DNA of 64,000 nt, taken from positions 1 to 64,000 of the forward strand of contig JAZAMN010000073.1 of the NCBI GenBank assembly GCA_036229005.1, read 5' to 3'. Shown here in pieces: positions 2,175-63,808 of this stretch. The notes beneath the pieces are model-generated. The model searched no databases, was not told the DNA's origin, and saw only the letters and a program-made list of their open reading frames with translations. The DNA is from Myxococcota bacterium. GTDB taxonomy: Bacteria > Myxococcota_A > UBA796 > CAJQPC01. The translations under genes and the position numbers were made by a program. Every line of letters begins with the position of its first letter. Position 1 is the stretch's first letter.

Positions 2175-2612
2175 ATGATCTTCGCCCTGCTGCTCGCCTG
2201 CACCGAGCTCGAGTACGACTCCACCGCCGAGTGCCCCGAAGACACCGGCTACGCCCCCGCCGAGCAGCCCGACGACCAGCTCTTGCCCGACCGGCCCCCC
2301 GTCATCGTCAGCACGGTCCCCCAGGCCGGCGATCTGGCGGTGAACCCCGGCCTCACCGAGATCCGCGCCACCTTCTCCAAGGACATGAGCCACAACGGCT
2401 GGTCCTACGTCATCACCTGGGCCGACCACTTCCCCGAGGTCGTCGGCGATCCCGTCTGGGAGGACCCGCGCACCGTGGTCTTGACCGTCTCCCTGGCCGC
2501 CGACACCGGCTACAGCCTGGGCTTCAACAACCAGAGCTACGAGAACTTCCGCGACACCAGCGGCAACGTGGCCGTGCCCTACGAGCTCAGCTTCCACACC
2601 GCCCCCCAGTAG
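2175..2612 (+). CDS. Lipoprotein with a bacterial Ig-like (Big_5/SbsA-like) domain
   Basis: GGAG RBS; MIFALLLAC lipobox; PPVIVSTVPQAGD...IRATFSKDM...FRDTSGN...LSFHT pattern. Confidence 0.8.
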   Translation: MIFALLLACTELEYDSTAECPEDTGYAPAEQPDDQLLPDRPPVIVSTVPQAGDLAVNPGLTEIRATFSKDMSHNGWSYVITWADHFPEVVGDPVWEDPRTVVLTVSLAADTGYSLGFNNQSYENFRDTSGNVAVPYELSFHTAPQ

Positions 2613-2628
2613 TAAACGCGGCCAGTAG

Positions 2629-14057: not shown

Positions 14058-14617
14058 TGGGTGTAGGTCCCGGCGACGAAGCTGGTGTAGGTGCAGCCCA
14101 CGGGGACCTGCTCGTTCTCGCTGGCGACGACCTCGAAGGTCTCGATGCCGACCCAGTCCAGGTCCTCGGCCGCGTTGCCGTCCAGGTAGTCGTAGTCGTC
14201 CGTGCTGATGGCCAGCCGGTCCATGGTCTCCTGGACGTTCTCGGCCATGTTGCAGGTGTCGCCGCCGGTCCGGTACACGGCCTCGCCGCTGAGCACCCAC
14301 TGGACGGGGCCGCCCGCGCGGTCGGGCTCACCCACCACCGCGGACTCGTAGGAGATGGTGCAGCCGGAGATCGAGCCGGTGGCGAAGGCGTCGGTGGTCT
14401 CGTCCACGACCTTGAGGGTCGCCAGGGAGCCGTCGAAGGCCACGCCGAAGGTCAGGCTCTCGGTCGAGGCGACCTCCTCCTCGTTGCAGTTGTCCTCGAC
14501 GCCGGTGACCTTCACGTCCCAGGTGTAGAGGTTCTCGTCCTCCTCCGGCTGGCAGCCAGTGAGGGCGAGCAGACCGAGCGCAGACAGGCTGAACATGCGG
14601 GTCAGGGAGGTGGACAT
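14054..14617 (-). CDS. Hypothetical lipoprotein (several Cys)
   Basis: MSTSLTRMFSLSALGLLALTGC lipobox; acidic, beta-rich sequence; first gene of the moxR unit. Confidence 0.8.
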   Translation of the reverse strand: MSTSLTRMFSLSALGLLALTGCQPEEDENLYTWDVKVTGVEDNCNEEEVASTESLTFGVAFDGSLATLKVVDETTDAFATGSISGCTISYESAVVGEPDRAGGPVQWVLSGEAVYRTGGDTCNMAENVQETMDRLAISTDDYDYLDGNAAEDLDWVGIETFEVVASENEQVPVGCTYTSFVAGTYTQ

Positions 14618-22300: not shown

Positions 22301-22682
22301 CGTTCACGATGCCGTTCCCGTCGGCGTCGTAGTCCAGCTCATTGCCGGCGGCGTCCTGGGGCGGCGGCAGCTCGGCGGTGTTCAGGCGCACCTTGTTGCG
22401 CAGGTCGGAGTGGTCCCACAGGATGCCGGAGTCCAGCACCGCCACGCTCTGGTCCCACTGGCCGGTGGTCTGCACCCACACGCGGTCCGCGCCGATGCCC
22501 GAGCCCAGCTCCACCTCGATGGGACGCAGCGTCTCTTCGCTCCCCGCGGGCACCCAGGAGTAGAGTCGCCACTCACCGGCGAGCTCGCTGGGGCAGGCCG
22601 ACTGGTTGTCCTGAGCGCAGTCCGGCACCGGAGCCAGCGGCACAGTGGCGGAAGCGTTCGCGAGGAAGAGCAGAAAGGACAT
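19398..22682 (-). CDS. S8 subtilase-like protein with FG-GAP repeats and a MYXO-CTERM-like anchor
   Basis: VAVLDSG, DDDGNGYVDDIAGWDF, THGSGVA; many DLDGDG repeats; C-terminus GCGRGC...FAFVLALVGLGALRRRR. Confidence 0.9.
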   Translation of the reverse strand: MSFLLFLANASATVPLAPVPDCAQDNQSACPSELAGEWRLYSWVPAGSEETLRPIEVELGSGIGADRVWVQTTGQWDQSVAVLDSGILWDHSDLRNKVRLNTAELPPPQDAAGNELDYDADGNGIVNVLDYADDPRVSIDAGRDRADSVLDPSDLIYTFSDGLDDDGNGYVDDIAGWDFFQGDNDPFSDWDDGYGTHGSGVARDAAGEGDNGGTIGVCPSCSIIPVRTGDSFITDGLRAGQGIAYATDMGAASIAMAMGALSNPQYTVDAMAYATQQGSVVVVAAADENSYHHNLPAMIHDAIVVISVREEGSGVEDTYSFMNFFGCNNFGPRLDFVSGTSDCATGATANTAGAVALLQSAAVEELGHRLTPAQVRALLQTTTDDVHLSAEELEKAGTYPSDEGWDAFFGHGRVNVGNAVEVLWSGELPAEAVIQGPEWFDVFYKGRDADPSFTVEHDGQSWTLEWGQGLEPETWNTLGSGGTEGAELTLPLSGISVESVPGAGGGEAAVERVERVHAPAITLRLRVDNGLGTESEARRTIFVYEDSTLLPGFPLHFGISGESSPILVDLDGDAVFEIVLGNANGEVHAITGQGEILAGWPVYTDIDDDVAEHETAAAYTSGALDAETGDGFLAALGAGDLDGDGSPEVVGATLEGRVYAWHADGSLVDGFPVRSDGVDPGVLNREVTLDEGFAGAPTLVDLDGDSDLEIVVGGADSKLYIWHHDGSVYGGSPVTLCHPDNCGVHARRIVASVSVGDVDGDGDSDLVVGTNETLDDGKYSVTFALDAQTLQALPGWPIQVVGLGISNTAALLPLIGTGHPASNALADFDGDGDDEIVDMVVLGKPRVLQGDGSSHLEPDTFISSYGAGSNLDEPSFVGLSGNPALGDLDGDGTPDLVVGAAGLNALASLVLTQVIDTHQFAVGGWSGADGVALEGFPRQIEDFQFLVAPAIADLSGDGAPEAIYGSAGYMVYAWDHQGNEPAGWPKFTGGWVMGSPAVGDIDGDGYMDVVVGTREGYLFAWSTEGRADQEVQWQSLHHDAANTGNMGTALMAQAGPVEEGCGRGCNRKESGYGGGGGFAFVLALVGLGALRRRR

Positions 22683-25768: not shown

Positions 25769-31459
<5,691 letters not shown>

Positions 31460-35225: not shown

Positions 35226-35270
35226 AGGGAGCAGTATACCTGTAGTTGACACCCTTGATGCCGCTGAGCG

Positions 35271-36965: not shown

Positions 36966-38129
36966 CTACTGGAGGGTAGCCGTCCCAACCAGCCCCACGT
37001 AGCTGGCGCCCTCGATGGTGTTCCCGGTGGACGGGTTCACGCTCTGGCTGCCCTGGCGCCGCATCAACTGGATGCTCATCAGCGCGCCCGAGGGGTAGCT
37101 GGTGAGCAGCGAGCTTGGGATGGTCGCGCCGCCGTTGTCTTCGGCGTGGCAGTAGAGCTCCCCCAGCACGGCGCTGCCCTGGGCGTTGAACACCGTGATC
37201 CAGATGATGAAGCTCTCGGCCTCGTAGGCGGGGGACCAGGTGAAGGTCAGGCCGTTCCGGGAGAGCTTGGTGAACGCCGAGTTGGAGGGGTTCAGGATGG
37301 TCAGGGGCTGGAAGGTGTCAAAGCCAAAGGTGGTCTCGACCACGTCCGAGACCTCCCAGCCGGCGCTGGGGACCTGCAGGTCGTAGGCGCTGTTCCAGAG
37401 CTTGTCGGACTCGCTCAGGGGCTGGCTCAGGTAGATCACCGAGCCGCCCTGGAGGCTCTTCTGCAGGGGGATGGAGTCGCTGCCCGCGCTGACGTAGGCC
37501 CAGTCGCCCATGTCCTTGTAGACGCTGGTCGGGGGCGTGCTGGCGCTGGTCGTGGCGCAGCTCCCCTGGGCGGGGAGGTCGTTGAGCCAGCTCCCGCCCA
37601 CCGGGTCGTGGAAGACCGCGCCGATGCTGTAGGAGAGCTGGCTGCTCACCCCGAAGCACTCCGGGCAGCCGTAGACCATGTAGCTGTACTCGACCAGCCC
37701 CTCGAGCTTGCCCGTGGGGGTGACGTCGGTGTCCGTGTCGCTGTCGGTGTCCGCGTCGGTGTCCGCGTCCCCGCCGCCGTCGGTGTAGGTGAAGGCGTTG
37801 TAGGCGACCGCCTGCTCCGTGCCGTTGTCCACCGTGACGTCCACCGGAGCCGCGACGGCGACCGCCGGGCTGGTCACCAGGAGCTGGCCGTCCCCGAGCA
37901 CCGTGGCCGAGAGCTCCGCGCCGCCGAACCAGACCGTGGGCGAGACGCCGAAGCCCTGGCCCAGGATCTGCACCGTGGTGCCCCCGCTGGTGGGGCCGAA
38001 TGCGGGCTCCACGCCGGTGATGCAGATGTCCGCCCCGCAGTCCCCGGCCGCGCTGCTGTCCAGCGCGGTCTCGAAGCCCTCCTCCAGGCCGAACTCACCA
38101 CAAGCGAGAAGGAGCAGCAGCGCAGGCAT
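36966..38129 (-). CDS. Lipoprotein with an IPT/TIG domain, DADTD linker and uncharacterised C-terminal domain
   Basis: MPALLLLLAC; ITGVEPAFGPTSGGTTVQILGQGF...AFTY. Confidence 0.85.
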   Translation of the reverse strand: MPALLLLLACGEFGLEEGFETALDSSAAGDCGADICITGVEPAFGPTSGGTTVQILGQGFGVSPTVWFGGAELSATVLGDGQLLVTSPAVAVAAPVDVTVDNGTEQAVAYNAFTYTDGGGDADTDADTDSDTDTDVTPTGKLEGLVEYSYMVYGCPECFGVSSQLSYSIGAVFHDPVGGSWLNDLPAQGSCATTSASTPPTSVYKDMGDWAYVSAGSDSIPLQKSLQGGSVIYLSQPLSESDKLWNSAYDLQVPSAGWEVSDVVETTFGFDTFQPLTILNPSNSAFTKLSRNGLTFTWSPAYEAESFIIWITVFNAQGSAVLGELYCHAEDNGGATIPSSLLTSYPSGALMSIQLMRRQGSQSVNPSTGNTIEGASYVGLVGTATLQ

Positions 38130-38132: not shown

Positions 38133-40841
38133 CTACCACCGCAGCGAGAAGAAGTCGGAGGAGCTGTAGCCGCTGTAGTAGTAGCCCCAGCCATCCGGGA
38201 AGTGGTCGCAGTAGCTGCCCGTCAGGCTGCCACACCAGCCCGCGCCGAAGCCCGCTCGGAGCTGCGTGCTCCCGATGCCCATGTCGGCCTCTGCCCAGGA
38301 CAGGCGCACGCTCTCGCTGTCGGGGTAGCTGACGGTGGGCTTGGACAGGGTGACGAAGGTGCTGTCGTAGCCCTGGAGCTTGGCGACGCCGCTCTGCAGG
38401 CTCAGGCGGTAGTAGGTGTAGTCGCCGCTGGTGGCCACGGCCCACATCTCGATGAACGCGGTGGCCGGGTCGATGCCGGGGGCGACCTTGTATTCGAGCT
38501 CGAAGGTGCCGCCGCTGACCCGGTAGCGGGCGTTGATCAGGTCGACCGTGTCGCCGTTGTTGTCGCCGATGGGGTCGTTGCTGGTGCTCACGTAGAGCCA
38601 GGGGGCCTCGCCGAGCACGACCTGGGCCTGCGCGGTGTAGGCCACGCCAGCGCCGTCCACCAGGTCAAGCTGCAGGTCCAGGGTGTCCCCCAGCGCCGCG
38701 CCCGCGTCCACGCTGACCTCGAAGTCCTTGGAGCGGCTGGAGCCGACGCCCAGGCTGCCCAGCAGGGTCGCGGTGCCCGGCGTGGTAGCGCTGGCCGTGC
38801 TGGTGCCGAGCACGCTCAGGGTGCCGGTGACCAGGCCGGTGGCGTCCAGGTCGCCCAGGTTGGTGACCTCGATGTCCAGCTCGGCGCTCTCGCCGGGCTC
38901 CAGCAGGCCGTCGCCGTCGCCCCCGTCCCCGTCGTCGATCTCGATGGCGGTGATGGTGGGGACGGCCCAGGGGACCGAGATGGAGACGGGCACGGTCCAC
39001 GACTCGACCTCGTCCTCCAGCAGCAGCTCGGCCTGCACGTCCTGGCTGTCGGTGTGGGCGGTGGACACGGTCAGGGACATGCCGGACAGGCTGGCCTCCT
39101 CGCCGGCCTCCCACGCATCCGAGGTCAGGGCGTAGGGGCCCCCGCTGTCCACGCTCAGGTCCGGGTCGGCGCTCAGCAGGGTGGCCTGCACGCCCCCAGC
39201 GCTGGAGGCGCCGTCATTGCGGAGCAGCAGCTCCAGATCCAGGCTGTCCCCGGGCGAGATGACCAGCGGATCCGTGCTCTGGCTGACCAGCACCGGCTCG
39301 GGCGGCTGGGGCAGGTAGACCAGGGCCTCCTCCCCAGCGCTCAGGGCGGGCAGCAGGCTGGCGTCGTAGTCCACGCCGCCGTAGCGGATCCCGAAGTCGG
39401 CTACCTGGCCGGCGACCGCGCTGTCCACCCGCACGAACCAGCGCTGGGCCGGAGCGGGCGGGAGCAGGTCGTACTGGTCGGTGAGCTCCAGCTCCAGGTC
39501 CAGATCCCCCGCGCTGGCCACGTCGGCGTAGACCTGCGTGGACCACAGCGGCGCGTCCGGGTCCCCCACCCCGATGTCCACCTGCACGAGGCCGGTGCCG
39601 CCCAGGTCCAGGGAGAGGGCGGCCGCGCTGGCCTGCCCCACGAGCAGCTCGCCGGGGAAGACCCAGCTCTGGGTGTCGTCGCTGAGGGTGAGCTCCATGG
39701 GCAGGTGGCTGTGGTTGGGCCACTCGCTGTCCACCACCACGTCGAAGGCCATGGTCTCGGTGGCCCCGGCGCCGATGCTGCTCAGCTCCTGGGGGCTGTT
39801 GGAGACGGTCGCGCCCCCGGCCGGGAAGCTCAGGGAGACCTCCAGCGGGCCCCCGGAGAGGTCCACCCGGTTCTCCAGGCTGACCTGCACGCTCGCGCTG
39901 TCCCCGGGCTCTACCGGGGTGTCCGCCCAGCCCACCGTGGGCCACACGTCGATGCTCAGGGGGCCCACGGCCACATCGTCGATGAACCAGTCATCGCTCA
40001 CGGCGCCCGCGTAGCGCCAGGCCAGGTAGACCGCCTGCTCGCCGCTGTAGGCGCTCAGATCCACCACCACGGAGCGCTGCCACTCCTTGTCCAGGGGAGC
40101 GGAGAGCTCGGTGAGCTGCACATAGTCCCCATCATCCGGCAGCCTGGAGCCCGTGGACACCCAGAGGCTGTGCTGCGCCAGCGAGGTGCTCTGTCCGTAC
40201 TCCTGCCAGGTGACCTGCACGCGCTCGGTGTCCGAGAGGTCCAGGGCCGGGGAGATCAGGTAGTCGTCCAGGGTGTTGGAGGCGTCGCTGCCCCGGAAGT
40301 GGGCGACCGAGTGGGTGCCGCTGACCGCGTGGGACTCGGAGAGCGCCCAGGGGAAGCCAGCGAACGAGACGCTGTCCTGCGCCCAGCCCAGCCCCCAGAT
40401 GTCCGTGGCGCCGTCCTCCAGCTCGAAGTCCTCGGTGAAGGGGAGCGCCAGGCCCACGACCTGGACGTCCACCGAGAAGACCTCGTCGTCGGCGTCCTCC
40501 GGGAGGGTGGAGGTGGACGGGATCTCGTTGAGATCGACGGCCTTGAAGTAGTACTCCAGCGCCGGAGAGGCGACGGCCTCTCCGGGGATCTCGCCGGTCC
40601 AGGTGGCCCCGCTGTCCGCGGTCTGGAGCTCCGCGAGGTTCCAGAAGCCGGAGCCCTGGGTGCGGTAGTAGACGGTGACCTCGCCGACCCCGTCCTCGTC
40701 TGCGGCCGCGAGCTCCAGCGAGATGGGCGAGCCCACCAGCACAGCCCCAGGCGGTGTGTGCGAGAGCTCGGGGGGGGCCAGATCCGCTTGGGAGTCCTCG
40801 ACCTGATCCTTGTTGCAGGCCAGCAGCAGGAGCCAGATCAC
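38133..40841 (-). CDS. Large multi-Ig lipoprotein with a choice-of-anchor J / MAM-like domain
   Basis: MIWLLLLAC; LEYYFKAVD; LPFTEDFE...DDYLISPALDLS...VDLSAYSG..VYLAWRY...WFIDDV; GDGDGLLEPGE. Confidence 0.85.
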   Translation of the reverse strand: MIWLLLLACNKDQVEDSQADLAPPELSHTPPGAVLVGSPISLELAAADEDGVGEVTVYYRTQGSGFWNLAELQTADSGATWTGEIPGEAVASPALEYYFKAVDLNEIPSTSTLPEDADDEVFSVDVQVVGLALPFTEDFELEDGATDIWGLGWAQDSVSFAGFPWALSESHAVSGTHSVAHFRGSDASNTLDDYLISPALDLSDTERVQVTWQEYGQSTSLAQHSLWVSTGSRLPDDGDYVQLTELSAPLDKEWQRSVVVDLSAYSGEQAVYLAWRYAGAVSDDWFIDDVAVGPLSIDVWPTVGWADTPVEPGDSASVQVSLENRVDLSGGPLEVSLSFPAGGATVSNSPQELSSIGAGATETMAFDVVVDSEWPNHSHLPMELTLSDDTQSWVFPGELLVGQASAAALSLDLGGTGLVQVDIGVGDPDAPLWSTQVYADVASAGDLDLELELTDQYDLLPPAPAQRWFVRVDSAVAGQVADFGIRYGGVDYDASLLPALSAGEEALVYLPQPPEPVLVSQSTDPLVISPGDSLDLELLLRNDGASSAGGVQATLLSADPDLSVDSGGPYALTSDAWEAGEEASLSGMSLTVSTAHTDSQDVQAELLLEDEVESWTVPVSISVPWAVPTITAIEIDDGDGGDGDGLLEPGESAELDIEVTNLGDLDATGLVTGTLSVLGTSTASATTPGTATLLGSLGVGSSRSKDFEVSVDAGAALGDTLDLQLDLVDGAGVAYTAQAQVVLGEAPWLYVSTSNDPIGDNNGDTVDLINARYRVSGGTFELEYKVAPGIDPATAFIEMWAVATSGDYTYYRLSLQSGVAKLQGYDSTFVTLSKPTVSYPDSESVRLSWAEADMGIGSTQLRAGFGAGWCGSLTGSYCDHFPDGWGYYYSGYSSSDFFSLRW

Positions 40842-41452
40842 AGGCCCTCCTGGTCACAGAGGGGGTCTTCGTCGACGTTCAGCACGGGCGGCAGGTCGAT
40901 GGGGGTGCTCTCGCTGTCCTCGTCCCCGTAGAGCCAGCAGTAGGTGGCGCACTGGTAGGAGATGATGTTGCCGTTGATGTCCCCGACGGGCAGGCAGCCG
41001 TAGCCGCTGGGGCAGTCGGTGTCGTCGCCGCACTCGACGCCGCAGTAGTCGTTCGCGCCCCAGTTCAGGCACATGTTGGCGCCGTCGCCGCCGCACTCGG
41101 AGTCGTCGTTGCAGGGCTTGCAGTAGTAGCCGGAGGCCTCGTAGCACTCCCCCGACGCGGTGTTGCAGAACTCGCCGAAGCCGCAGTCGAGCTGGGTGTC
41201 GCGGCAGGAGCCGGGCACGCACTCGCGGACGTCCGTGTTGCAGACATCGCCGGGGTAGCAGTCGGAGTCCTCCAGGCACCCGTCCTGGCAGCTCTGCTCG
41301 GCGCAGTACTGCTCCATGCCGCACTGATCTGAGGTCGCGCAGGGGACGGGCTTGCAGACGCCCTCCAGACAGACGGAGCCGAACTCGCAGGCGATCTCCT
41401 CGGAGCACTCCACCTCGGGCCCACCGCAGGCCATCATGAGCATCAGGATCAC
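40838..41452 (-). CDS. Cysteine-rich repeat lipoprotein
   Basis: MILMLMMAC; repeated C-x-x-D-x-D/E-C-x-x-G-x-x-C units. Confidence 0.85.
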   Translation of the reverse strand: MILMLMMACGGPEVECSEEIACEFGSVCLEGVCKPVPCATSDQCGMEQYCAEQSCQDGCLEDSDCYPGDVCNTDVRECVPGSCRDTQLDCGFGEFCNTASGECYEASGYYCKPCNDDSECGGDGANMCLNWGANDYCGVECGDDTDCPSGYGCLPVGDINGNIISYQCATYCWLYGDEDSESTPIDLPPVLNVDEDPLCDQEGL

Positions 41453-43074
41453 TGGGAAGCCCCCTCGGCGCTGCCGGAGTCTTGGGTTCCGTCTTCAGCG
41501 TCGGTCGCGCTCCTGGCGCGGAGCTCGTAGCTGACGGAGATGTAGCTGTTGGGCGGCGGCATCTGCTCCTCTTCGAAGCGGATGGCGTTGCGCTCGGCGA
41601 TGTAGGTCCAGTCGCTGCCCTCCTCCAGCGTGCGCAGGAAGGAGTCCAGGCTGTCGGTCTCGTAGAGCTCCACCTCGAAGGTCTCGGGGTTGGGGTTCTC
41701 GGAGAGCTCGAACTCCAGGGCCAGGCCGCTCAGGACCAGGCCCAGGTCGGCGGCGATGGGCGAGAAGTCCTCGTCGCAGATGGAGTCGACCAGGCCCTCG
41801 GTGCGGTTGGCCAGGTCCACGTAGCGCTTGCCGTAGTCGGCCACGCCGTCCTCGCTGGAGCAGGAGGGCTCCCCGGAGAACTGGGGCGGGTAGGCGCCCA
41901 CCACGGCCGAGATGTTGAAGCGGGTGTGGTTGCGGTAGGCCGACTCGCCCTTGAGGTCCGTGAAGAAGCGCAGGTACTCGTCGACGGGGGAGCCGGAGTC
42001 GTCGTCCTCGTCCGAGACGAAGATGAGCGAGAGGTTGGCGTCCTCCCGCAGGAAGCCGGCGTTGTCCTCGGAGATCAGGGGCTCCGAGAGGCTCATGCGC
42101 GCGGCCTCGTAGCCCATCTCGATGCCCACCCCGGAGGTGCCCTGGGCGACCATCTCCGAGAAGATCTCGGAGGCGCCCTCGGTCTCGGGGTCGATGATGG
42201 TGATCTGGTTGTTGAGGGTGAAGGCCTCCCCCAGCGCCAAGGATCCCTCGATGCCGCCGTTCTCGGCGGAGTCCGCGCTGCGGGCCACGACGATGAAGCC
42301 CCCGGCGGCCACGGTGGTGCCCTCCGGGAAGATGTAGTCGTTGCGCCCGGCGTCGCTGAGGTGCATGCCGGACAGGTCCAGGGCCTTGTCGGTGGTGTTC
42401 TTGAGCTCCACCCACTCGCCCAGGTTGTCGGCGACGGCCGCGGGGTCCGCCATGAACTCGTTGATGATGAGCTCACCGGACTTGGGGGCCTCGGCGCTGG
42501 TCTCGGAGCCGCCCGTGTCCGTCGTGCTGCCGGTGTCCTCGCTGGCGGTGTCCGCGCTGCCGGTGTCCGCGAGCCCAGCGGCGCAGGCGGTGTTCTCGGA
42601 TCCGGGGGTGCCCAGGTCCCCTCCCCCATAGGCGGCCGCGCCGGCGCACCAGCTCCCGGGGAGGTCGTTGAGGGTGCGGGTGGCCTTGTCGGGGTCCAGG
42701 GCGAAGCTGGCTCCGGTGGGGATGCCCCAGTCGCGGTCGAAGTCCACGCGGTCGATCTCGGAGCCCGCGGCGGAGAGCAGGCGGATCTCGTCGTCGCCGC
42801 CCACGAACTTGCCGGAGAACTGCTCCTGGACCGTGTCGGTGGTGGTCACGGCGATCTGGTACTCGACGTCGACGCCCTCGAAGTACTGGATGAAGCTGTC
42901 GAAGTTGCTGGCGAGCTTGTCCTGCTCCTCGAACATGGAGCAGGAGTTGTCGACCACCAGCAGCACATCGACCTGGTTGCGGCCGTTCTGCTGGAAGATG
43001 TCGGTGTGCTTCTGGTTGTAGAACTCGTAGTCCTGGCAGCCGAGCAGGCTCAGCAGGAGGGCAAAGCTAGGCAC
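41449..43074 (-). CDS. vWA-domain lipoprotein with an inserted lamin-tail domain
   Basis: LLGC lipobox; DVLLVVDNSCSM MIDAS, IAVTTTD, EMGYEAA, GFLREDANLSLIFVSDEDD, SICDEDF; LTD motifs INEFMADP / EWVELKN / GTPGSEN. Confidence 0.88.
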   Translation of the reverse strand: MPSFALLLSLLGCQDYEFYNQKHTDIFQQNGRNQVDVLLVVDNSCSMFEEQDKLASNFDSFIQYFEGVDVEYQIAVTTTDTVQEQFSGKFVGGDDEIRLLSAAGSEIDRVDFDRDWGIPTGASFALDPDKATRTLNDLPGSWCAGAAAYGGGDLGTPGSENTACAAGLADTGSADTASEDTGSTTDTGGSETSAEAPKSGELIINEFMADPAAVADNLGEWVELKNTTDKALDLSGMHLSDAGRNDYIFPEGTTVAAGGFIVVARSADSAENGGIEGSLALGEAFTLNNQITIIDPETEGASEIFSEMVAQGTSGVGIEMGYEAARMSLSEPLISEDNAGFLREDANLSLIFVSDEDDDSGSPVDEYLRFFTDLKGESAYRNHTRFNISAVVGAYPPQFSGEPSCSSEDGVADYGKRYVDLANRTEGLVDSICDEDFSPIAADLGLVLSGLALEFELSENPNPETFEVELYETDSLDSFLRTLEEGSDWTYIAERNAIRFEEEQMPPPNSYISVSYELRARSATDAEDGTQDSGSAEGASQ

Positions 43075-43981
43075 CGCTGTCTCCAGTGTCGGTGGACTCG
43101 TCGGATTCGGAGGCGTTGCCTGGGTCCAGGCGGTCCACCATCGCGGTCAACAGGGCGTCGGAGAGCCCCGGGGTCTGGCTGTTCCAGTGGAAGGAGGTGA
43201 AGATCACCTGGCCGCGGCCGGCCTCGAAGCTCAGCAGCAAGGGGACGCCCTCGGCGGTGGCGTAGCCCTCGGACTCGGAGACCTTGTACTCGACGTCGCC
43301 GGTGGCGAAGACCTCGACGTCGTCGGCGACGGACTCCACGAAGGTCCAGTCGGAGTAGTCGAAGTGCACGGACATGGTGTCCGAGCCGACCTCGGTCTTG
43401 AGGCCCTCGTCCTGGAGTTGGGCGGTGAGCTGGCCGGCGACCGCGACCTGGGCTGCGTCGTACACCCCGCTCTCATCTTGGTAGAACTTGACCTTCTCGG
43501 GCCACACGGCCTCGACGAGGTCATAGCTCCAGTCGCTGACGACCAGGGTGCGCCCGTTGCCTTCCACGTAGGTGCGCACGCGCTCGATGACCTCGGGGTC
43601 GGCGACAAAGGCGTCGTCGTCTTCGATGCCGTTCCACTGGACCTCTCCGAAGCCGCGGGCCCCGGAGTTGACGAACACGGCGTCGAAGCTGTCGATCTCG
43701 GCGTCCTCGTCCGCGTCCACGTAGGTGAACAGGGTCTCGGACTTGAGGGCGATCTGCTCGGGGTCCACGTCGTCGTCGTAGGCGGGGGCGGAGATGAAGC
43801 CCTCGTAGACGGTGTGGGCGACGTCCAGGCGGCCCAGGTTGCGCTCGACCGCGTCGAAGTCGCCGGACACGACCGCGATGTTGTCGAAGGGCTGGAGGAT
43901 GATCTCGTTCTCCGTGCACCCCAGGGAGAGGAATCCCAGGGGAGCCAGGAGGACGGCGAGGGCGCAGGTCCTGCGCTTCAT
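43067..43981 (-). CDS. Lipoprotein, class I glutamine amidotransferase-like fold
   Basis: MKRRTCALAVLLAPLGFLSLGC; IAVVSGDFD, FDAVFVNSG, VRTYVEGNGRTLVVSDWSY, GRGQVIFTSFH. Confidence 0.75.
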   Translation of the reverse strand: MKRRTCALAVLLAPLGFLSLGCTENEIILQPFDNIAVVSGDFDAVERNLGRLDVAHTVYEGFISAPAYDDDVDPEQIALKSETLFTYVDADEDAEIDSFDAVFVNSGARGFGEVQWNGIEDDDAFVADPEVIERVRTYVEGNGRTLVVSDWSYDLVEAVWPEKVKFYQDESGVYDAAQVAVAGQLTAQLQDEGLKTEVGSDTMSVHFDYSDWTFVESVADDVEVFATGDVEYKVSESEGYATAEGVPLLLSFEAGRGQVIFTSFHWNSQTPGLSDALLTAMVDRLDPGNASESDESTDTGDSGA

Positions 43982-43998: not shown

Positions 43999-45774
43999 TC
44001 ACTCGAGGATGAAAGCGGCCTGAAGGTAGATGTAGGAGTCGGCCTGGTTCTGCTGGTAGATGCTCTCTCGCAGGCCGAACTCGCGGCCCTGGATGAAGCT
44101 GTACGCGATGAAGTAGACCTGACCGGGATCCAGGAGGCTGAGCTCTTCGGCGATGTAGGCGTGCACGCCGTCGTCCCAGGGGATGGAGGCGGCCATGCCC
44201 GGGTCCGTGGTGCCGTTGTAGGTGGTGCCGCTGATCTCGGTGTAGAAGATGGCGTCGGGGTAGGTGCACGCGCCCAGGCCGCCCTCGGTGTTGGACCACT
44301 GGTAGTTCAGGTCCGTCGAGCGGTCGTGGGTGTAGTTGCCCCAGAAGCCGGGGGTGTCCAGGTACCAGTTGCAGGGCACGGTGGGCTGGACGTCCTCGAT
44401 GATCTCCTCCTCGAGCCCGTCGGGGTCGCCCTGCAGGTGCAGATCGTAGAGGTTGTCGGGGACGTAGTCGTCGATGGTCAGGTCGTAGCCGACGTAGCTG
44501 ATCATCCCGGAGTTGGAGTCGACGGTCTTCTCCAGGGTGACGGTGTTGGCGTCGGACTCCAGCCAGACGTAGTCGCCCGCGGAGACGGTCGTGGGGTTGG
44601 GGCAGTCTTCGGCCTCACCTTCGCTACCGGAGCCGGTGACGGGTCCGACCACGTTGCCGTCGTAGGGGGAGGGCTCGGGCTTGGAGCCCATCCCGCCGCC
44701 GCCGCTGGGACAGGGCGGATCCAGGGGCACAAAGAACACCGCGCCAGCGTTCACCCGCTCGACCAGCGCGCCGCTGTCGTTGTCGATGCCCCGGGTGACG
44801 GTGAAGGAGAGCGAGACGGCGACCTCCTCCAGGGACCAGGTGCCGCCCTGGACCTCGAAGGCGTCGGGGATGCGGAGGCCCTCGTCGTCGGTGGTGATGA
44901 GCACGTCGCGGTCACCGAGCTCCGCGGCGTTGGACAGGGTCATGCGGCCCCAGAGGTTCTCCGAGTCCAGCACGGTGATGCTGTCCACGCGGATGTCCGG
45001 GTTCAGGCCGTCGCTGTCGTAGAAGGTGATGTCCGTGACGTCCTGGATGAAGTTGGTGTCCCGCGCCTTGACGGTGAACTCCACCTGGGTGCCCTGGGTG
45101 GCCTCGGCGGGGTCCCAGGTCGCGGCCAGGGCGACGCGGTCGACCATGAATCCGTCGTAGAGGTTCACGACCTTGGGGCCGTCCTCCGTGTAGATGTCCC
45201 GCAGGCCGGGGCGGGCGTCGCCCTCGATGGAGATCTCGGCCTCCAGCAGGGTCTGGGAGAGGACCTGGACCTCCAGCACGTCGATGTCGTCGCCCAGGTT
45301 GACCCAGGTGCGGCCGTCCTTCCACTCGGTGTTCTGGCCCTCCAGCGTGATGGACACGGTCTCGCCGACCTTGCCCCGCTCGGGGGTGACCACGAAGGTC
45401 TCGCCGGTGACCCGGAAGCCCTTCTCGATGGCGTAGCTGCGGCCGCTGGTGTCGATCTGGATCTTGCGGGGGCCGACCTCGGCGTCCGGCTCGATGCTGA
45501 TGTCGACCAGCAGGGTCCAGTTGTCCTGGACGGTGACGCCGTCCACCCGGATCCCGGCGCCAAAGTAGACATCGGTGGCGCCGTCGAAGTCGAACACGCC
45601 GTTCTGCGCCTGGATGCCGACCTGCATGGAGCGGCCAGCGGGTCCGGCGGGCGGAGAGACGGTGAACAGCGAGTCCGGCGCGGCCTGCTCACCGCTGTCG
45701 TCTGGCTGGGAGTTGCAGCCCAGCACGAGCAGAGGGGCGGCGGCGAGCGACAGCAACAGCCAGCTTCGCGACAT
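43999..45774 (-). CDS. Lipoprotein with three Ig/IPT-like repeats and an uncharacterised C-terminal domain
   Basis: AGGAGA RBS; MSRSWLLLSLAAAPLLVLGC; three repeats of the type P..G..G.tv.i...nt.f....t.v..G.gI.V..v.V...G.Rdv. Confidence 0.85.
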   Translation of the reverse strand: MSRSWLLLSLAAAPLLVLGCNSQPDDSGEQAAPDSLFTVSPPAGPAGRSMQVGIQAQNGVFDFDGATDVYFGAGIRVDGVTVQDNWTLLVDISIEPDAEVGPRKIQIDTSGRSYAIEKGFRVTGETFVVTPERGKVGETVSITLEGQNTEWKDGRTWVNLGDDIDVLEVQVLSQTLLEAEISIEGDARPGLRDIYTEDGPKVVNLYDGFMVDRVALAATWDPAEATQGTQVEFTVKARDTNFIQDVTDITFYDSDGLNPDIRVDSITVLDSENLWGRMTLSNAAELGDRDVLITTDDEGLRIPDAFEVQGGTWSLEEVAVSLSFTVTRGIDNDSGALVERVNAGAVFFVPLDPPCPSGGGGMGSKPEPSPYDGNVVGPVTGSGSEGEAEDCPNPTTVSAGDYVWLESDANTVTLEKTVDSNSGMISYVGYDLTIDDYVPDNLYDLHLQGDPDGLEEEIIEDVQPTVPCNWYLDTPGFWGNYTHDRSTDLNYQWSNTEGGLGACTYPDAIFYTEISGTTYNGTTDPGMAASIPWDDGVHAYIAEELSLLDPGQVYFIAYSFIQGREFGLRESIYQQNQADSYIYLQAAFILE

Positions 45775-45940: not shown

Positions 45941-47212
45941 GTGACCCTCATCGCCCTGAGCCTGTTTGCCTGCAAGGACGGCGGCGGCGCCGACACCGCG
46001 CCCACCAACTCCGCCCCCGAGATCACCTCGCTCGCGCTCACCCCGTCCGAAGCCGGTGTGGAGGACCCCATCGTCGCGGCGGTGGAGGCGAGTGATGCAG
46101 ACGGCGACACCCTCTCCTACTCCTACGCCTGGACCGTCGACGGAGAGGCCGCCGGGGACGACAGCGACACCCTGCCCGCGGGGACCGCCACCAAGGGCCA
46201 GTCCGTGGTGGTCAGCGTCTCGGTCAGCGACGGGGAGGAGGAGGTCAGCTCCGAGAGCGCTGCGCTCACCATCGGGAACACCGCTCCGGCTGGCGGGGCG
46301 GTCTCCATCCTGCCGGGGACCCCCAGCGCCGGCGAGGACCTGATCTGCCGCCTGACCACCGAGCCCACGGACGCCGATGGCGACGCCCTTGGCTACACGG
46401 TGACCTGGACCGTGGACGGCGTGGCGGTCTCCCCCCAGGGCGTCGACACCGAGCTCCCCGACGACCACGTCCTGGCCAGCCAGACCCGGGGTGAGGAGAC
46501 GTGGGCCTGTGAGATCACCGCGGACGATGGGGAGGCCTCGATCACTCTGGCCGCCAGCGTGACCCTGCCCCCCGCGCCGCAGGTGCTCATCATCTGGGAC
46601 ACCGAGTCGGAGGGGACCCCTGGTCTGGTGAGCGCGCTGGAGGACTCCGGCGCCATCGTGACGCTCTCCGACACCGACGAGACCGGCTACACGGGGCTGA
46701 ACCCGGCGCCCGACGCCTTCGACACGGTCATCCACCTGAACGGGACGACCTACACCACCGACATGCCCACCGAGGGCCAGACCGCGCTCGTGGACTTCGT
46801 CGACAACGGCGGCGGCTTCATCAGCACCGAGTGGGACGCCTACGAGGTGTTGTACAACCGGCACCAGGTGCTGCAGGCCATCGTGCCGATGCGGCGCGAC
46901 AACGGGTCCGGCGGGACCTTCACGGAGCACACGCTGGTGGGTGAGCACCCCGTGACCGACTCCCTCCCGGAGACCTTCACCGTCACCGCGAATTGCAATG
47001 GCAACGTGGGGAGCGCCGTGGAGGCGGCCCAGGTCCTGGCGACCACCGTCCTGTGGGGGGACACGGTCGCCGTGATGTCCTACGGCAGCGGCCGCGTGGC
47101 CGGGTTCGCCTATGCCGGCAACTACGCCAACGACAGCAGCGCCTACTGCCTGAACGACCCCGCGATCAGCACCATGATGGTGAACGCGGTGTGGTGGACC
47201 GCGGGGATGTGA
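45941..47212 (+). CDS. Lipoprotein with two Ig-like repeats and a GATase-like C-terminal domain
   Basis: GGAG RBS; MTLIALSLFAC; NSAP/NTAP...DADGD.L.Y...WTVDG repeats; ALVDFVDNGGGFI, HPVT, YGSGRV. Confidence 0.8.
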   Translation: MTLIALSLFACKDGGGADTAPTNSAPEITSLALTPSEAGVEDPIVAAVEASDADGDTLSYSYAWTVDGEAAGDDSDTLPAGTATKGQSVVVSVSVSDGEEEVSSESAALTIGNTAPAGGAVSILPGTPSAGEDLICRLTTEPTDADGDALGYTVTWTVDGVAVSPQGVDTELPDDHVLASQTRGEETWACEITADDGEASITLAASVTLPPAPQVLIIWDTESEGTPGLVSALEDSGAIVTLSDTDETGYTGLNPAPDAFDTVIHLNGTTYTTDMPTEGQTALVDFVDNGGGFISTEWDAYEVLYNRHQVLQAIVPMRRDNGSGGTFTEHTLVGEHPVTDSLPETFTVTANCNGNVGSAVEAAQVLATTVLWGDTVAVMSYGSGRVAGFAYAGNYANDSSAYCLNDPAISTMMVNAVWWTAGM

Positions 47213-47255: not shown

Positions 47256-48473
47256 TCAGGGCAGGCTGACGAACATCGTCAGCAGGCACATTTCGTCTTG
47301 GGTGCCGTCACCCCAGTTGGTGACCTCATCGACCGAGGTGCTGTCGTAGGTGCAGCGCATGCCGATGGCGTCGCTGGGCTCGACCCGCACGGGCTCCGTG
47401 AAGGTGTAGGCGAGCTGCCAGTTGAAGTCCCAGCGGGGCACGTCGACCAGGCAGGTCTCGCTGCCGTCTTCGTGCTCCAGCCAGGCCTGCTCGGAGCGGC
47501 CGAGCTTGTGCATGTGGGGGGCGACGGCCCACAGGTTCAGAGCGATGGGCACCCCAAAGTCGGAGAGGCTAACGACGCTCTCCTCGCTGTGGGACTCCTG
47601 GCCGGGGGGGATGTTCAGGGTGGCATCCACCCAGAAGAAGGAGAGCATCTCGGTCTCCACCTGGGGCTCGATCTGGAGGTTGACCTTGGTGCTGTCCAGG
47701 TGGTCGTCAGACGCGTTGTTGTAGTGCATCTGCACGACCACGGGCATGTCGGGCTTGACGCGGATGCCGGTGCCCTCGGGGTAGCGGTTCACCGAGGTGC
47801 CCGGGGCCCAGGAGGCCAGCATGGAAGCGTCCACCCGAGCGTCGCCGAAGCAGGTGTATCCCTCGCCGCTGTCGGCGTCGTCGAGCTCGTAGGCCTCGGC
47901 GAGGGCGGCCTCGTCGCTGGGGGCGTACACGATGAGGTGGTGCACGATCTCAGGGTTGCCCGGCAGCACCTCGAAGCCGGTCAGGAAGCCCTCTTCGGTG
48001 ACACCGGGGTCCACGATGAAGCAGCGGTATGCGTCCGAGCTCTGAGCGAACGCGACCTCCACCTCTCCCAGGTCCAGAGTGTGGCTGACCTCCTCCAGCT
48101 CAGGGAGCGGGTCGGGAGCGCCGGGGTGGTCCTCCGGATTGCCCTCGACCAGACCACCGTCCACCCAGTCGCGGATGGTGGCGATCTCGTCCTCGGAGAG
48201 CCACTTGGCGTCGTGGTAGTCGTTGCAGGCGCCGCTGGCATCGGCCAGGTAGGGCGGCATGCGGCGGCTCTCCACCGAGTCCAGGACCTGGTTGGCCAGC
48301 AGGCTGACCTGCTCGTAGTCCTCCAGGCCGAAGGGACCGATGGCGCCCGCCTGGTGGCAGCTCACGCAGTTGTCCCGCAGGATGGGGGCCACGTCGCGGT
48401 TGTACTGGACCGCGCTGGGGTCGGCGGAGTCGCCAGGAGAGTCGCTGTTGCAGGCAAGGAGGAGGAGGAGCAT
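47256..48473 (-). CDS. Lipoprotein: cytochrome c domain plus copper type II (PHM/DBH-like) monooxygenase
   Basis: MLLLLLAC; CVSCH heme motif, MPP; Cu ligands VHH, QMHY, PHMH, DEMC; RWDFNWQ. Confidence 0.9.
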   Translation of the reverse strand: MLLLLLACNSDSPGDSADPSAVQYNRDVAPILRDNCVSCHQAGAIGPFGLEDYEQVSLLANQVLDSVESRRMPPYLADASGACNDYHDAKWLSEDEIATIRDWVDGGLVEGNPEDHPGAPDPLPELEEVSHTLDLGEVEVAFAQSSDAYRCFIVDPGVTEEGFLTGFEVLPGNPEIVHHLIVYAPSDEAALAEAYELDDADSGEGYTCFGDARVDASMLASWAPGTSVNRYPEGTGIRVKPDMPVVVQMHYNNASDDHLDSTKVNLQIEPQVETEMLSFFWVDATLNIPPGQESHSEESVVSLSDFGVPIALNLWAVAPHMHKLGRSEQAWLEHEDGSETCLVDVPRWDFNWQLAYTFTEPVRVEPSDAIGMRCTYDSTSVDEVTNWGDGTQDEMCLLTMFVSLP

Positions 48474-50369: not shown

Positions 50370-50379
50370 TCACACCTCC

Positions 50380-50419
50380 AAAAAGAGAGACCCGCGAAGG
50401 GAAATCCCAACGCGGGTCT
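50380..50419 (-). terminator. Intrinsic terminator-like hairpin between nqrF and apbE
   Basis: Minus strand AGACCCGCG-TTGGGATTTCCCTT-CGCGGGTCT then CTCTTTTT, abutting the apbE GGAGG RBS. Confidence 0.75.
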
Positions 50420-50442
50420 GTGCAGACGAGGACAGGCTGGGC

Positions 50443-51690: not shown

Positions 51691-51700
51691 TTGAGGACCC

Positions 51701-52318: not shown

Positions 52319-52320
52319 GA

Positions 52321-52968: not shown

Positions 52969-52972
52969 GGGG

Positions 52973-60430: not shown

Positions 60431-60446
60431 GCCCTGGGACGCCCCC

Positions 60447-61793
60447 TCAGGCCAGCAGCTCCGAGATCACGCCCCCCTCCAGGTCGGGGTGGCCGAAGTC
60501 TTCGACCCACTCCTCGCCCTTGACGCCCATGGCCGTGGCCAGGGTGTTGAAGAGGCGGTTGTGGGTGATGCCCCCCAGGTCCAGGTGCTGGCCCACGGCC
60601 AGGCGGCCGCCCGCGGAGCCTGCCAGGATGAAGGGCACGTTGTTGTAGGTGTGCGAGGGCCCGGCGCCCAGGTCGTTGCACCAGACCGCGCAGCCCTGGT
60701 CCAGCACGCCGTGCTCGTTGAGGCGGTCCAGCAGGTGCAGGAAGGTCTGGGCGAAGAGCCGGTCGATGGCCTTGTGCATCTCGTAGGCGCCCTCGATGGC
60801 CTCGCCGTCAGACCCGTCCGAGTAGATGCGGTGACTGACCCAGTGGAAGGACGGTAGGCGCTGCCCGTTGACCGTGTACTCGGTGCTGTCGTTCCCATCC
60901 CCGATCTGCAGGGTGCCCGAGCGCACGAAGCCACACGAGGCCGCCAGCGCCATCAGGTCCATCTGCCAGCGCGCGTAGTTCAAGCGCTCGTCGTCCAGGC
61001 GGGAGAGGCCCACGCCGTCGCGCATGGCGTCCTCCTGCTCCTGGCTCAGGCGGCAGGAGAGGCGCTCGAAGTCGCGGATGCTCTCGCGGTGCAGGTCCAG
61101 GCGGGCGACGTCCGAGCTGGAGAGCCCGGGGTGGGCCATCAGGGCGTCGAGCTGCGCGGCGAGCACGTCGTTGGCGCTCTGGCGCTGCAGGTCCAGCACC
61201 TCGAGGCTCACCCCGTCGGTGAGGCCCAGCATGCGCTGGTAGGCGGTCCAGGGGTCGTCCTCGGCGGCCCGCAGATCCTTCTCCCCGCGGTAGGACAGGA
61301 CCTCCTCCAGGTAGCCGTTGCGGGGCCCGGTGTAGAGGGTCAGCGGCTCCCCGCCGTTCTCGTCGAAGTGCCGGGCGACGTAGCTGTCGATGGACTCGCC
61401 CATGGCCAGGCTCCCGGCCCCGCTGGGGTCATCGGAGACCTCGTGCGCGGTGAGCACCTGGTTGCCGCCCCCGGAGTGGCCGCAGCCGTTGCTGGAGAAG
61501 GCGAACTTGAGGCCCTTCACCGCGGCGATGGACGACCCGTAGGGCGCGAGCTCCGAGAGCACCCGGTCGCTGTCGGCCTCCAGGATCTCGCGGGAGAGCT
61601 CGCCCTCGGCGCTGGGCCAGAAGCCCTCGGCCTCGCCGTTGTCGGCCTGGCTCACGCCGTTGCCCTGGCGCACAAAGAAGAGGAAGGGGTCGCCCTCGGC
61701 GGCCCGGGCCTCACCGTGGATGGACTCCAGAAAGGGCAGGCCCAGGGTGAGTCCGGCGGTCCCGGTCAGGAAGATTCGGCGGGAGGTCTTCAT
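60447..61793 (-). CDS. DUF1552 (HXXSHH) family protein with a Tat-like leader
   Basis: SRRIFL..LPFLES, SIDSYVA, DVARLDLHRESIRDFE, HWVSH, NVPFILAGSAGG. Confidence 0.9.
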   Translation of the reverse strand: MKTSRRIFLTGTAGLTLGLPFLESIHGEARAAEGDPFLFFVRQGNGVSQADNGEAEGFWPSAEGELSREILEADSDRVLSELAPYGSSIAAVKGLKFAFSSNGCGHSGGGNQVLTAHEVSDDPSGAGSLAMGESIDSYVARHFDENGGEPLTLYTGPRNGYLEEVLSYRGEKDLRAAEDDPWTAYQRMLGLTDGVSLEVLDLQRQSANDVLAAQLDALMAHPGLSSSDVARLDLHRESIRDFERLSCRLSQEQEDAMRDGVGLSRLDDERLNYARWQMDLMALAASCGFVRSGTLQIGDGNDSTEYTVNGQRLPSFHWVSHRIYSDGSDGEAIEGAYEMHKAIDRLFAQTFLHLLDRLNEHGVLDQGCAVWCNDLGAGPSHTYNNVPFILAGSAGGRLAVGQHLDLGGITHNRLFNTLATAMGVKGEEWVEDFGHPDLEGGVISELLA

Positions 61794-63808
61794 TCTGCGT
61801 CCATCCGGGTGCGGAAGCTGGGAGAGCTGACCAGGGCGACCAGCAGCTCGACGATGGGGAGCCCCTCGGCACTCTGGGCGCCCAGCTCCTCCAGCAGGGC
61901 GTCATCCGCGGCCTCGGTCGTGCGGCCGTGGGTCCAGGAGAGCCAGTGGCCGGCGTAGCAGCGGTGCGTCTCGGGGTGCTGGGCGATGATCTCGACGAAC
62001 TCGCGCCCGTGGGTCCAGCTCTCGCTGCCCCCGTCAAAGGAGAAGGTGCCGGAGGCGTCCACGGGCTTGCCGTTGTCCTCGCTCCGGATCTGACCCATCG
62101 CGTCGTAGGCCTCGAACGCAAAGCCCGGGGGGTTGATCATGGTGCTGTGGCACCCAGCGCCGCAGGTCCCGTCCCCCGTGTGGGCCTCGACCCGCTCCCG
62201 GTTGGTCTGGTCGGGGTCCAGCCCGGGGAGCCCGGTGACGTTGTCCGGCGGATCCGGCAGGTCCCGGCAGAGCACCTCCAGGTTCACGAACACGCCGCGG
62301 TGGATGGAGGACGGCGTGGTGCTGTCCGCGTGGTGGGAGAGCCAACCGGCCTGGGTGAGCAGTCCGCCGCGCTCGTTGGGGTCGAGCTCCACCCGCTCCA
62401 TGCCTGTGTCCAGCTCGCCGGCGTCCAGGCCGTAGACCGGCGCCAGGTCCGCGTTCACGAAGGTGAAGGGCGCCGCATAGAGGCTGTAGACGCCCGACTG
62501 CTCCTGGAACACGACCTCGTCCACGAAGAGCTCGACCTCCCGGCGCATCGCGCTGTTCAGGTCGGCGCTCCACACCGGGAAGCGCTCGGGGTCCTTGTAG
62601 ATGTTCTCGTAGGTGTCCAGGGCCATGAGCTGGCCGTGGAAGTCCTCGACCACCGCCCGGGCCCGCGGATCCTCAAGCATGCGCCAGGCCTGCGCCTGGA
62701 CCTCGGCCTCGGTGCCCAGCTCTCCCGCCGCGGCGGCCTCGAAGAGGGTCGCATCCGGCATGGAGTTCCACAGCGCGTAGCTGAGCTTCGCGGCGATCTC
62801 CCAGTCGTCCAGGGGGATGCGGCCGTCCTCGTCGGTCTCCTGGCTCGCCTCCACCCGGTACAGGAAGTGGGGGGACTGGAGCATGGTCGCCAGCGTGAGC
62901 TGCACACCGTCCGCGAAGTCGTCCCCGCTCTCGAAGATCTCTGGACCCTGCTGCCACAGCGAGGTCATCGTTTCGATCTCCGCGTCCGTCAAGGGGCGAC
63001 GCCAGGCGCGCTGACCGAAGGCCGCGATCCACGCCTCGGCCTCGGCCTGGCCCGCGGTGGACTCCCCCAGCAGCGAGCTGCCCCGCACCTGGAGGTAGTC
63101 CACGGACAGGTTGCGGTCGTTGCCCGCGTCCGCGTCGTAGCAGTCGTTGGTGAACTTGACCGAGACGTTGTGCACGCCGGCGGCCAGCTCCACGTCGTGC
63201 TCGTAGAGGGTGTAGGTGGGCGTGGTCTCCCCCTCCCCCACCAGCACATCGTCCACGTAGAGCTCGTAGGTCGCATAGACCTCGTCCCCGCAGTCGCTGC
63301 CCAGCAGCTCGGCGCCCACCGCGTACTTGGCGTTGTTCGGCAGCTCGAAGTCGGCGCTCAAGGTGCCGGTGGACCAGAGCATCCACCCGCTGCTGATGCC
63401 GCCACCGGAGGTGGTGACCACCCCGTCGGCCTCGGCCTCGATGACCTCGACGTGCTCCTCCCCGCCGCTGCGGGGGTCCTGGGGCACCACGGCGGCATAG
63501 CGGTCTGGATCGCTGACCGTCAGCCGCGCCAGCTCCTCGGCCGCCCGCTGGTAGTCCTGGAAGCGCACCGCGTCGACCTGGAGGGCCTCGGCGTTGTTGT
63601 TGAAGCCTTCGGAGAGGGTGTCCTGCAGGAAGGCGTCGGACAGGCCGGTCTCGGCCTCCAGCGCCAGCAGGTCAGCGACTGTGTTCTCCCACTGGGTGTG
63701 GGTCAGTCGCGCAACCCGAGGGCTGGCCGTGACCTCAAGCTCCGCCTCGGTCGTAGGCGTCGCGTCCTGCTGGCAGCCACCGCAGGCGATCAAGAACAAT
63801 GCGAGCAC
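61790..63808 (-). CDS. DUF1592-cluster protein (DUF1587/1595/1592/1588/1585) with an inserted carbohydrate-binding-like domain
   Basis: RLTHTQWENTVADLL, RAWRRPL, QSPHFLYR, LSYALWNSMPD, RGGLLTQ, SSIHRG, CGAGCH; start uncertain (GTG 63808; ORF open to 63862). Confidence 0.9.
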   Translation of the reverse strand: MLALFLIACGGCQQDATPTTEAELEVTASPRVARLTHTQWENTVADLLALEAETGLSDAFLQDTLSEGFNNNAEALQVDAVRFQDYQRAAEELARLTVSDPDRYAAVVPQDPRSGGEEHVEVIEAEADGVVTTSGGGISSGWMLWSTGTLSADFELPNNAKYAVGAELLGSDCGDEVYATYELYVDDVLVGEGETTPTYTLYEHDVELAAGVHNVSVKFTNDCYDADAGNDRNLSVDYLQVRGSSLLGESTAGQAEAEAWIAAFGQRAWRRPLTDAEIETMTSLWQQGPEIFESGDDFADGVQLTLATMLQSPHFLYRVEASQETDEDGRIPLDDWEIAAKLSYALWNSMPDATLFEAAAAGELGTEAEVQAQAWRMLEDPRARAVVEDFHGQLMALDTYENIYKDPERFPVWSADLNSAMRREVELFVDEVVFQEQSGVYSLYAAPFTFVNADLAPVYGLDAGELDTGMERVELDPNERGGLLTQAGWLSHHADSTTPSSIHRGVFVNLEVLCRDLPDPPDNVTGLPGLDPDQTNRERVEAHTGDGTCGAGCHSTMINPPGFAFEAYDAMGQIRSEDNGKPVDASGTFSFDGGSESWTHGREFVEIIAQHPETHRCYAGHWLSWTHGRTTEAADDALLEELGAQSAEGLPIVELLVALVSSPSFRTRMDAE

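Follow-up and report, generated by a model that had tools for sequence, protein, structure and literature searches.

Several genes in a 64,000-nt stretch of DNA from a Myxococcota bacterium (NCBI assembly GCA_036229005.1, contig JAZAMN010000073.1, positions 1 to 64,000, forward strand; the whole stretch is hereafter called the window) start with leaders of only 7-12 residues, which are uncharged, rich in leucine and immediately followed by a cysteine. Short uncharged leaders of this kind are real gene starts, and are found in about one gene in 10 of the genome. They appear to be a variant of Sec signal peptides, expected to work like these but failing two of their defining features, the basic n-region and the length of at least 15 residues. 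In the reading somewhat favoured here, they are Sec signals stripped of the n-region, and the proteins carrying them would take the usual path of export through SecYEG and of processing by Lgt, LspA and Lnt, with the help of a SecY whose altered pore ring probably opens to weaker signals.

The genome (6.4 Mb, 70% GC, 94% complete; the 16S rRNA is not in the assembly) was analysed with a hexamer gene finder, in which starts are chosen on coding score alone, and 5376 genes were called. The initial annotation had recommended a genome-wide count of starts followed by a short run free of charged residues, a small residue and Cys. The pattern is matched by 576 genes. Only 16 are expected from internal start-like codons (212 in 70000), and 29 (maximum 44) from shuffled N-termini. 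Leaders of 7, 8, 9, 10, 11 and 12 residues are found in 129, 133, 146, 84, 57 and 27 genes, respectively. Leucine makes up 56% of their residues, and Ala, Gly or Ser occupies position -1. After filtering for hydrophobicity, 565 short and 149 canonical lipoprotein-type genes are left. Absence of charge is built into this pattern. A looser search, in which the most upstream start of each gene was used, places Cys at position 13 or earlier in 320 of 650 lipobox genes, and 317 of these 320 have no Lys or Arg before it, a figure partly forced by the pattern where Cys is at 7-9. When Cys is at 10-13, and one to four positions are hence unconstrained, only 3 of 161 forced leaders (those beginning at the first ATG, GTG or TTG after an in-frame stop) include Lys or Arg.

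Could the starts be wrong, the proteins in fact beginning further upstream with basic residues? Two hundred of the 576 genes do have an alternative start within 30 codons, preceded in 60 by a Shine-Dalgarno (SD)-like motif, and a few alternative starts do yield basic leaders. As many as 297 starts are forced, and 79 more have no other start within 30 codons; for 170 of the 317 uncharged forced leaders not even CTG, ATH or ACG codons are available upstream. An SD sequence is located 5-8 nt ahead of 40.6% of the short starts, versus 54.7% of canonical ones and 29% of other genes, and internal codons give a flat profile. In 12.7% of the short-leader genes, versus 2-3% (2.0%) of canonical lipoproteins, a -10-like box is found at the distance expected for a leaderless mRNA. 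Overall, 474 of the 576 short starts have at least one of three features: an SD, a -10 box, or coupling to a stop located upstream. Independent database gene calls agree with these starts. The opinion of the initial annotation that miscalled starts are unlikely is confirmed: for the forced set miscalling is contradicted, and as a general explanation it is very improbable. The RNA sequencing runs cover only small contig pieces (shares of 0.08 or less) and give no start sites. As a separate observation, about 9% of all genes lack an SD and feature, 6 nt ahead of the start codon, a -10-box-like hexamer preceded by a G-rich run; these are predicted leaderless mRNAs.

Homologues indicate what the leaders stand for. 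The gene starting at 48473 was compared with the best 120 of 1176 homologues, read as called in the database. In the 42 closest the Cys is invariant (42/42), and in 40 it lies at position 7-11 with no Lys or Arg before it; close homologues thus carry leaders of 6-10 residues on the equivalent Cys. Among the remaining 78, which include proteins of named Sandaracinaceae, Kofleriaceae and Myxococcaceae, 64 have Cys at position 14 or beyond (median 18) together with Lys or Arg, and 5 are short and uncharged. The residue is therefore conserved, and in most distant homologues it stands behind canonical signals. The same alternation is found within the genome, in 26 short/canonical pairs of paralogues (21 short and 15 canonical genes) up to 64% identical. 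Short leaders are thus seen to replace ordinary signals on homologues.

All nine leaders reported in the window by the initial annotation were found, with Cys at residue 8-13 and no Lys or Arg before it, and seven of the nine starts are forced (2175, 38129, 40841, 41452, 43074, 45941, 48473). Two leaders have SD motifs at 6 and 7 nt and lie on the plus strand. The first (2175..2201; 8 residues, Cys9) belongs to a 145-aa Big_5 (Ig-like) protein identified by Pfam, the second (45941..45973; 10 residues, Cys11) to a 423-aa protein. All others are on the minus strand. They precede a 387-aa IPT/TIG protein (38100..38129; 9 residues, Cys10), which has an in-frame stop one codon upstream and a 3-nt gap to the upstream gene; a 902-aa protein (40815..40841; 8 residues, Cys9), the start of which overlaps the upstream stop and follows a strong SD; a 204-aa Cys-rich protein (41426..41452; 8 residues, Cys9), similarly overlapping the upstream stop; a 541-aa lamin-tail-domain protein (43036..43074; 12 residues, Cys13) with an SD, the relatives of which in other orders of the class carry basic signals; and the 405-aa copper type II monooxygenase-like protein already mentioned (48450..48473; 7 residues, Cys8). 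GTG is the start codon at 40841, 41452, 43074, 45941 and 63808. A second gene pair resembling that at 41452-43074, also short-leadered, is located at G000:C6:60811-62426.

For the other two leaders, starting at 35225 and 63808, an upstream start codon is also available, so that these starts are not forced. At the former (35193..35225; 10 residues, Cys11; 165-aa protein with no Pfam hit), an alternative GTG nine codons upstream (35252) adds no basic residue. The short start is favoured by a -10-box-like hexamer (35233..35238, minus strand) 7 nt ahead of the ATG, a predicted start signal for a leaderless mRNA which has the same spacing as the genome-wide peak. A two-box promoter scan detected no promoter, including at this hexamer. 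At the latter (63782..63808; probably 8 residues, Cys9; DUF1592 family), an upstream TTG at 63862 is a possible alternative and would bring in Arg residues; SD spacing fits the short start, and an SD with a 7-residue leader is found on a homologue from a different genome. The minimal leader noted for the subtilase is also present (22647..22682, minus strand; 12 residues, forced start). It is uncharged and of the signal peptidase I (SPase I) type, as is an additional leader of about 16 residues (32904..32951, minus strand) which the initial annotation had not reported. The three canonical leaders said to coexist with the short ones are there, all on the minus strand. One (14552..14617; Cys22) has a single Arg and an internal Met8, a possible shorter start. 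The others are basic, have Cys22 (43916..43981) and Cys20 (45715..45774), and lie in one operon, which runs from 45774 to 36966 and mixes these two with four short leaders. The products of the short-leader genes in the window are typical surface proteins according to Pfam (Ig-like, IPT/TIG, lamin-tail, copper monooxygenase-like and DUF1592-family proteins, and the subtilase).

Lipoprotein signals of the Sec/signal peptidase II (SPase II) type consist of an n-region, an h-region and a lipobox, and measure 16-26 residues on average, according to the available text of a published survey (PMC8689077). The short leaders share with them a hydrophobic run, a small residue at -1, the invariant Cys, a disordered tether and the presence of Lgt, LspA and Lnt genes in the genome, and homologues bear canonical signals on the same Cys. 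They differ because they measure 7-12 residues (median 18 in the canonical class of the same genome), lack the positively charged n-region and have Leu at -2 in 68% of cases, versus 26% of canonical leaders. The best six-residue hydropathy is 2.95 in short and 2.80 in canonical leaders, and total hydrophobicity is about 60% of that of canonical ones. The tethers of the two classes are alike: they are acidic in both (median net charge -3 each), and an Asp-Ser/Thr-Gly/Ala motif is found in 28% of short and 31% of canonical lipoproteins. As regards the signal for Lol sorting, Asp at +2 occurs in 3% and 8%, respectively. Twin-arginine (Tat) signals were considered and rejected, as no Arg is found in the leaders. 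A different possibility is that the Cys is lipidated and the tiny leader stays on, or that the leader is a plain uncleaved anchor and the Cys is modified in another way. The leader is perhaps too short for the helix-binding groove of LspA, and the lipobox departs from the consensus at -2. Position -1, though, is Ala in 77% of short versus 79% of canonical leaders, and remains Ala, Gly or Ser as in these; moreover, a parallel SPase I class, described below, keeps its cleavage site and a conserved mature start. Retention of the leader is thus improbable.

The tether motif deserves a separate mention. Within 30 residues of the Cys it is found in 161 of 576 short-leader proteins, the product of the 38129 gene among them, versus 235 of 4762 others, and tethers hosting it often carry Asp-Thr/Asp-Ala repeats. 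It presumably resembles a motif of Bacteroidota, and is possibly a glycosylation or surface-sorting mark.

Loss of the n-region is not restricted to lipoproteins. Uncharged hydrophobic runs open 344 genes which have no Cys. In 140 of these an Ala-x-Ala site ends at residue 9-16, versus 12 expected (maximum 17), and 116 of the 140 lack a later membrane helix. Among 120 sequences in the subtilase set (query included), 81 lack the n-region, 30 are basic and 9 unclear, and the mature start is common to them. Likewise, 12 of 21 OmpA-domain proteins, read by eye, have no n-region, and a Pal-like protein retains a basic signal. These leaders resemble canonical Sec/SPase I signals for the hydrophobic core and the Ala-x-Ala site before a conserved mature start, and differ because they are uncharged and about 9-16 residues long; E. 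coli signals have a median of 22 and a minimum of 15-16 residues, as reported in the accessible part of a review (PMC5963308). BamD was tried as a marker lipoprotein and proved of no use: at 30 loci in the order, members of its family mostly have canonical SPase I-type signals with no lipobox Cys, which is kept in 3. Elsewhere in the window, a gene at 3669-6782 (plus strand) encodes a secreted protein of about 1030 aa with at least 19 TSP3 repeats and, if ATG 3669 is the start, an uncharged leader of about 20 residues. At 2629-3498 (minus strand) lies a divergent gene that resembles those for signal peptidase I and scores below the TIGR02227 cut-off; six matches to the S26 family are found in the genome.

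Since the n-region is lost in both the lipoprotein and the SPase I classes, the change should lie in targeting or translocation, and not in lipidation. This bears on the hypothesis of a dedicated route for minimal leaders, based on a specialised Lgt or LspA paralogue, or on insertion by the signal recognition particle (SRP) and YidC without SecA. The genome encodes single SecA, SecY, Ffh, FtsY and YidC, Lnt, at least one SPase I, four Lgt and two LspA. The multiple Lgt, two of which are divergent and below the TIGR00544 cut-off (G000:C21:84306-85220 and C52:307944-308822), and LspA genes fit a dedicated route, as do the distinct Leu at -2 and the retention of Ffh in 19/19 genomes of the order. 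Lgt, however, is present in 2-7 copies in all 91 genomes of the class surveyed, and LspA in 1-4 copies in 21 genomes both inside and outside the order, with conserved columns unchanged and no diagnostic column. SPase I substrates show the same trait, and short and canonical leaders alternate in one operon (43981-38129). There is accordingly little chance that such a route exists. Other candidates were discarded: duplication of Lgt or LspA as the cause, because it is class-wide; duplication of SecA, SecY or YidC, because each is single; loss of SRP, as Ffh is retained in 19/19 order genomes and FtsY is found in this genome; and replacement of the n-region by an unformylated N-terminus, as fmt is present in 60 of 61 class genomes and this one has two def genes. 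The search for divergent or duplicated machinery suggested by the initial annotation found no trait-specific Lgt, LspA, SecA, SRP or YidC (no Lgt tree was built). Of the non-canonical targeting or lipidation which had been proposed, the separate lipidation route is unsupported, given the SPase I-type signals and the occurrence of both leader types on paralogues; targeting is reduced to a possibly relaxed, otherwise ordinary SecY channel, a matter of correlation only.

The distribution of the trait was monitored by an SD-anchored DNA pattern, a proxy which does not enforce frame and charge and gives mostly 0-8 matches in controls. Matches number 111 in this genome and 120 in a genome of the same genus. 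The median is 25 in the order (range 1-120, 43 genomes) and 7 in other orders of the class (1-15, 14 genomes). In the rest of the phylum only 8 of 243 genomes exceed 12, and the highest of these is due to a repeat. A scan across all species genomes gave at least 115 loci. Among the matches listed, long ORFs with typical tethers come from records titled Myxococcota, Deltaproteobacteria or proteobacterium, or evidently mislabelled. Thirty-five genomes were taken from the listed matches; 28 have 16-127 matches and 7 have 3-6. In a quick SecY tree, from which two trait columns were dropped and in which two rows are identical to others already in the set, 23/23 usable rows from 22 high-count genomes fall in the clade of the order (SH-aLRT 99), and 2 low-count rows fall outside. 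This clade, one record of which is titled Deltaproteobacteria bacterium UBA2385, is taken to be GTDB order UBA796 of Myxococcota. Among 23 leaders seen at loci of 11 low-count genomes of the order, 22 can be read as carrying a basic residue and one is a forced short leader; leaders are already shortened there (median 13 for 21 leaders, versus 18 for 27 leaders in other orders of the class). Overall, the trait is limited to a single order of Myxococcota, and is patchy within it.

Two side observations concern the same survey. G263, from another class of the phylum, has several matches that read as short lipoprotein leaders with Cys near 9-11 and one Lys or Arg kept, a milder shortening. Records titled as enterobacteria or other Gammaproteobacteria (L104, L118, L122, L134, L135, L162, L168) have 36-74 matches; the SecYs usable from them group in the Myxococcota order, and the public labels are evidently wrong.

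Among the components, only SecY bears a clear signature of the order, at E. coli positions 187, 192, 164, 168 and 110. Residue 187 is Ala in 12 and Ser in 7 of 19 order genomes, and Ile in 8 and Met in 2 of 10 genomes outside. Phe192 is replaced by Thr in 17/19 and Ser282 by Ala in 4/19. Columns conserved in the outgroup but lost in the order are 9/205 in SecY, versus 10/817 in SecA, Ffh, LspA and three ribosomal proteins. Diagnostic columns are 5/377 in SecA, three of them in the C-terminal tail, and 1/209 in Ffh. A distinct feature of SecA is its C-terminal zinc site (G000:C19:13596-16421), which ends in Cys-Cys in 18/19 rows of the order and in Cys-His in 10/11 outside. The pore of SecY is lined by a ring of six isoleucines, as stated in the available portions of two reports (PMC8082313, PMC11470409). 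Ile187 is a member of it, and prlA sites are listed at 69, 191, 278, 282 and 408 in the part of a structural study at hand (PMC2171872). According to the sections available of two further papers, most prl changes are located in the ring, the gate or the plug, and permit export with defective or absent signals (PMC3164448, PMC5963308). A non-conservative change of this kind is found at SecY 187 in 19/19 order genomes, which in likeness to prl suppressor translocons have a smaller or polar residue in the ring. Unlike prlA alleles, the change is natural, order-wide and outside the prl sites listed in the consulted extracts; the likeness is one of sequence. The SecY change may loosen the checking of signals.

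Several points weigh against an export of n-region-stripped signals helped by SecY. The change at SecY was one evolutionary event, so that the p = 0.006 of the column comparison overstates. The change is also found in genomes of the order where short uncharged leaders are rare (1-13 matches). Ala or Ser occupies position 187 in 20 of 147 diverse unrelated representatives, and two of the ten looked up are Planctomycetota. This genome retains five of the six ring residues, and substitution at 187 is not named as a prl allele in the available parts of the prl literature cited. A strict textbook lipobox fits 16% of short versus 54% of canonical leaders, because of the frequent Leu at -2. Hydrophobic runs of 6-8 residues are, furthermore, too short for a helix spanning the bilayer. 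As the SecY change is shared by members of the order with basic signals and by unrelated SecYs, it would be permissive at most.

The same data suit the view that ordinary Sec, Lgt and LspA already accept short leaders, that the n-region was lost by drift, the leucine run and signals in the mature domain being sufficient, and that the SecY change is a bystander mark. Within the order the SecY change does not follow the trait, and it occurs elsewhere; high-count genomes are scattered on the SecY tree of the order; and, according to the accessible part of the review cited above (PMC5963308), SecA recognises internal targeting signals. If this were so, the trait should arise in other lineages as well, but the 257 other genomes of the phylum are near control level, which also answers the concern of the initial annotation that such leaders might be common in ordinary bacteria. 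Moreover, matches listed from named ordinary bacteria were mostly short chance ORFs when read by eye, and the lower limit of 15-16 residues for E. coli signals, given in the same partial source (PMC5963308), is hard to reconcile with free acceptance. A bystander role of SecY is rather unlikely on balance, yet it is the most serious of the alternatives.

In the reading favoured here, that of n-region-stripped Sec signals passing an altered SecY, the starts, counts, conserved Cys, signal replacement on homologues, presence of the machinery and SecY substitutions are observed. Export of the proteins through the ordinary Sec channel is probable and lipidation of the Cys likely, every step after translation, cleavage included, being predicted. 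The leucine run plus the mature domain would suffice for delivery by SecA or SRP. The leader would then enter the lateral gate of SecY, eased by the looser ring, and the chain would pass. Lgt would add diacylglycerol to the Cys and LspA cut before it, SPase I taking care of the Ala-x-Ala class. Historically, a permissive SecY may have appeared at the base of the order, followed by order-wide shortening of the leaders and by loss of the n-region in several lineages, in hundreds of genes. A bolder version is tentative, and the odds are against it: the order would host a natural signal-suppressor SecY, several lineages would depend on Met plus six leucines for most of their lipoproteome and a large part of their secretome, and the minimal signal for bacterial export and lipidation would be seven uncharged residues.

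Other genes of the window are unrelated to leaders. A complete-looking operon for the Na+-translocating NADH-quinone reductase is found at 49260-56404 (minus strand), with nqrA, B, C, E and F confirmed by NCBIfam, and is followed by a gene for an ApbE-like flavin transferase. A tandem (double) UvrA of 1896 aa is encoded at 25769-31459 (plus strand).

No paper on uncharged leaders of 7-12 residues was found in the open-access literature, subscription papers being outside the search. A secretome study assigned many extracellular proteins to a UBA796 genome, and the trait is not mentioned in the part of it available (PMC11495043). The textbook rules of a basic n-region and at least 15 residues would be broken by natural substrates numbering about 570 of the lipoprotein type and 140-340 of the SPase I type. 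Homologues and paralogues with ordinary signals provide built-in controls for asking what the n-region does, how small a substrate Lgt and LspA accept, and what part the SecY ring plays in proofreading. The PROSITE-type lipoprotein rule demands a basic residue and Cys at position 15 or beyond. Lipoprotein predictors based on such a rule would overlook the majority of the surface proteins in these uncultured bacteria, which are widespread.

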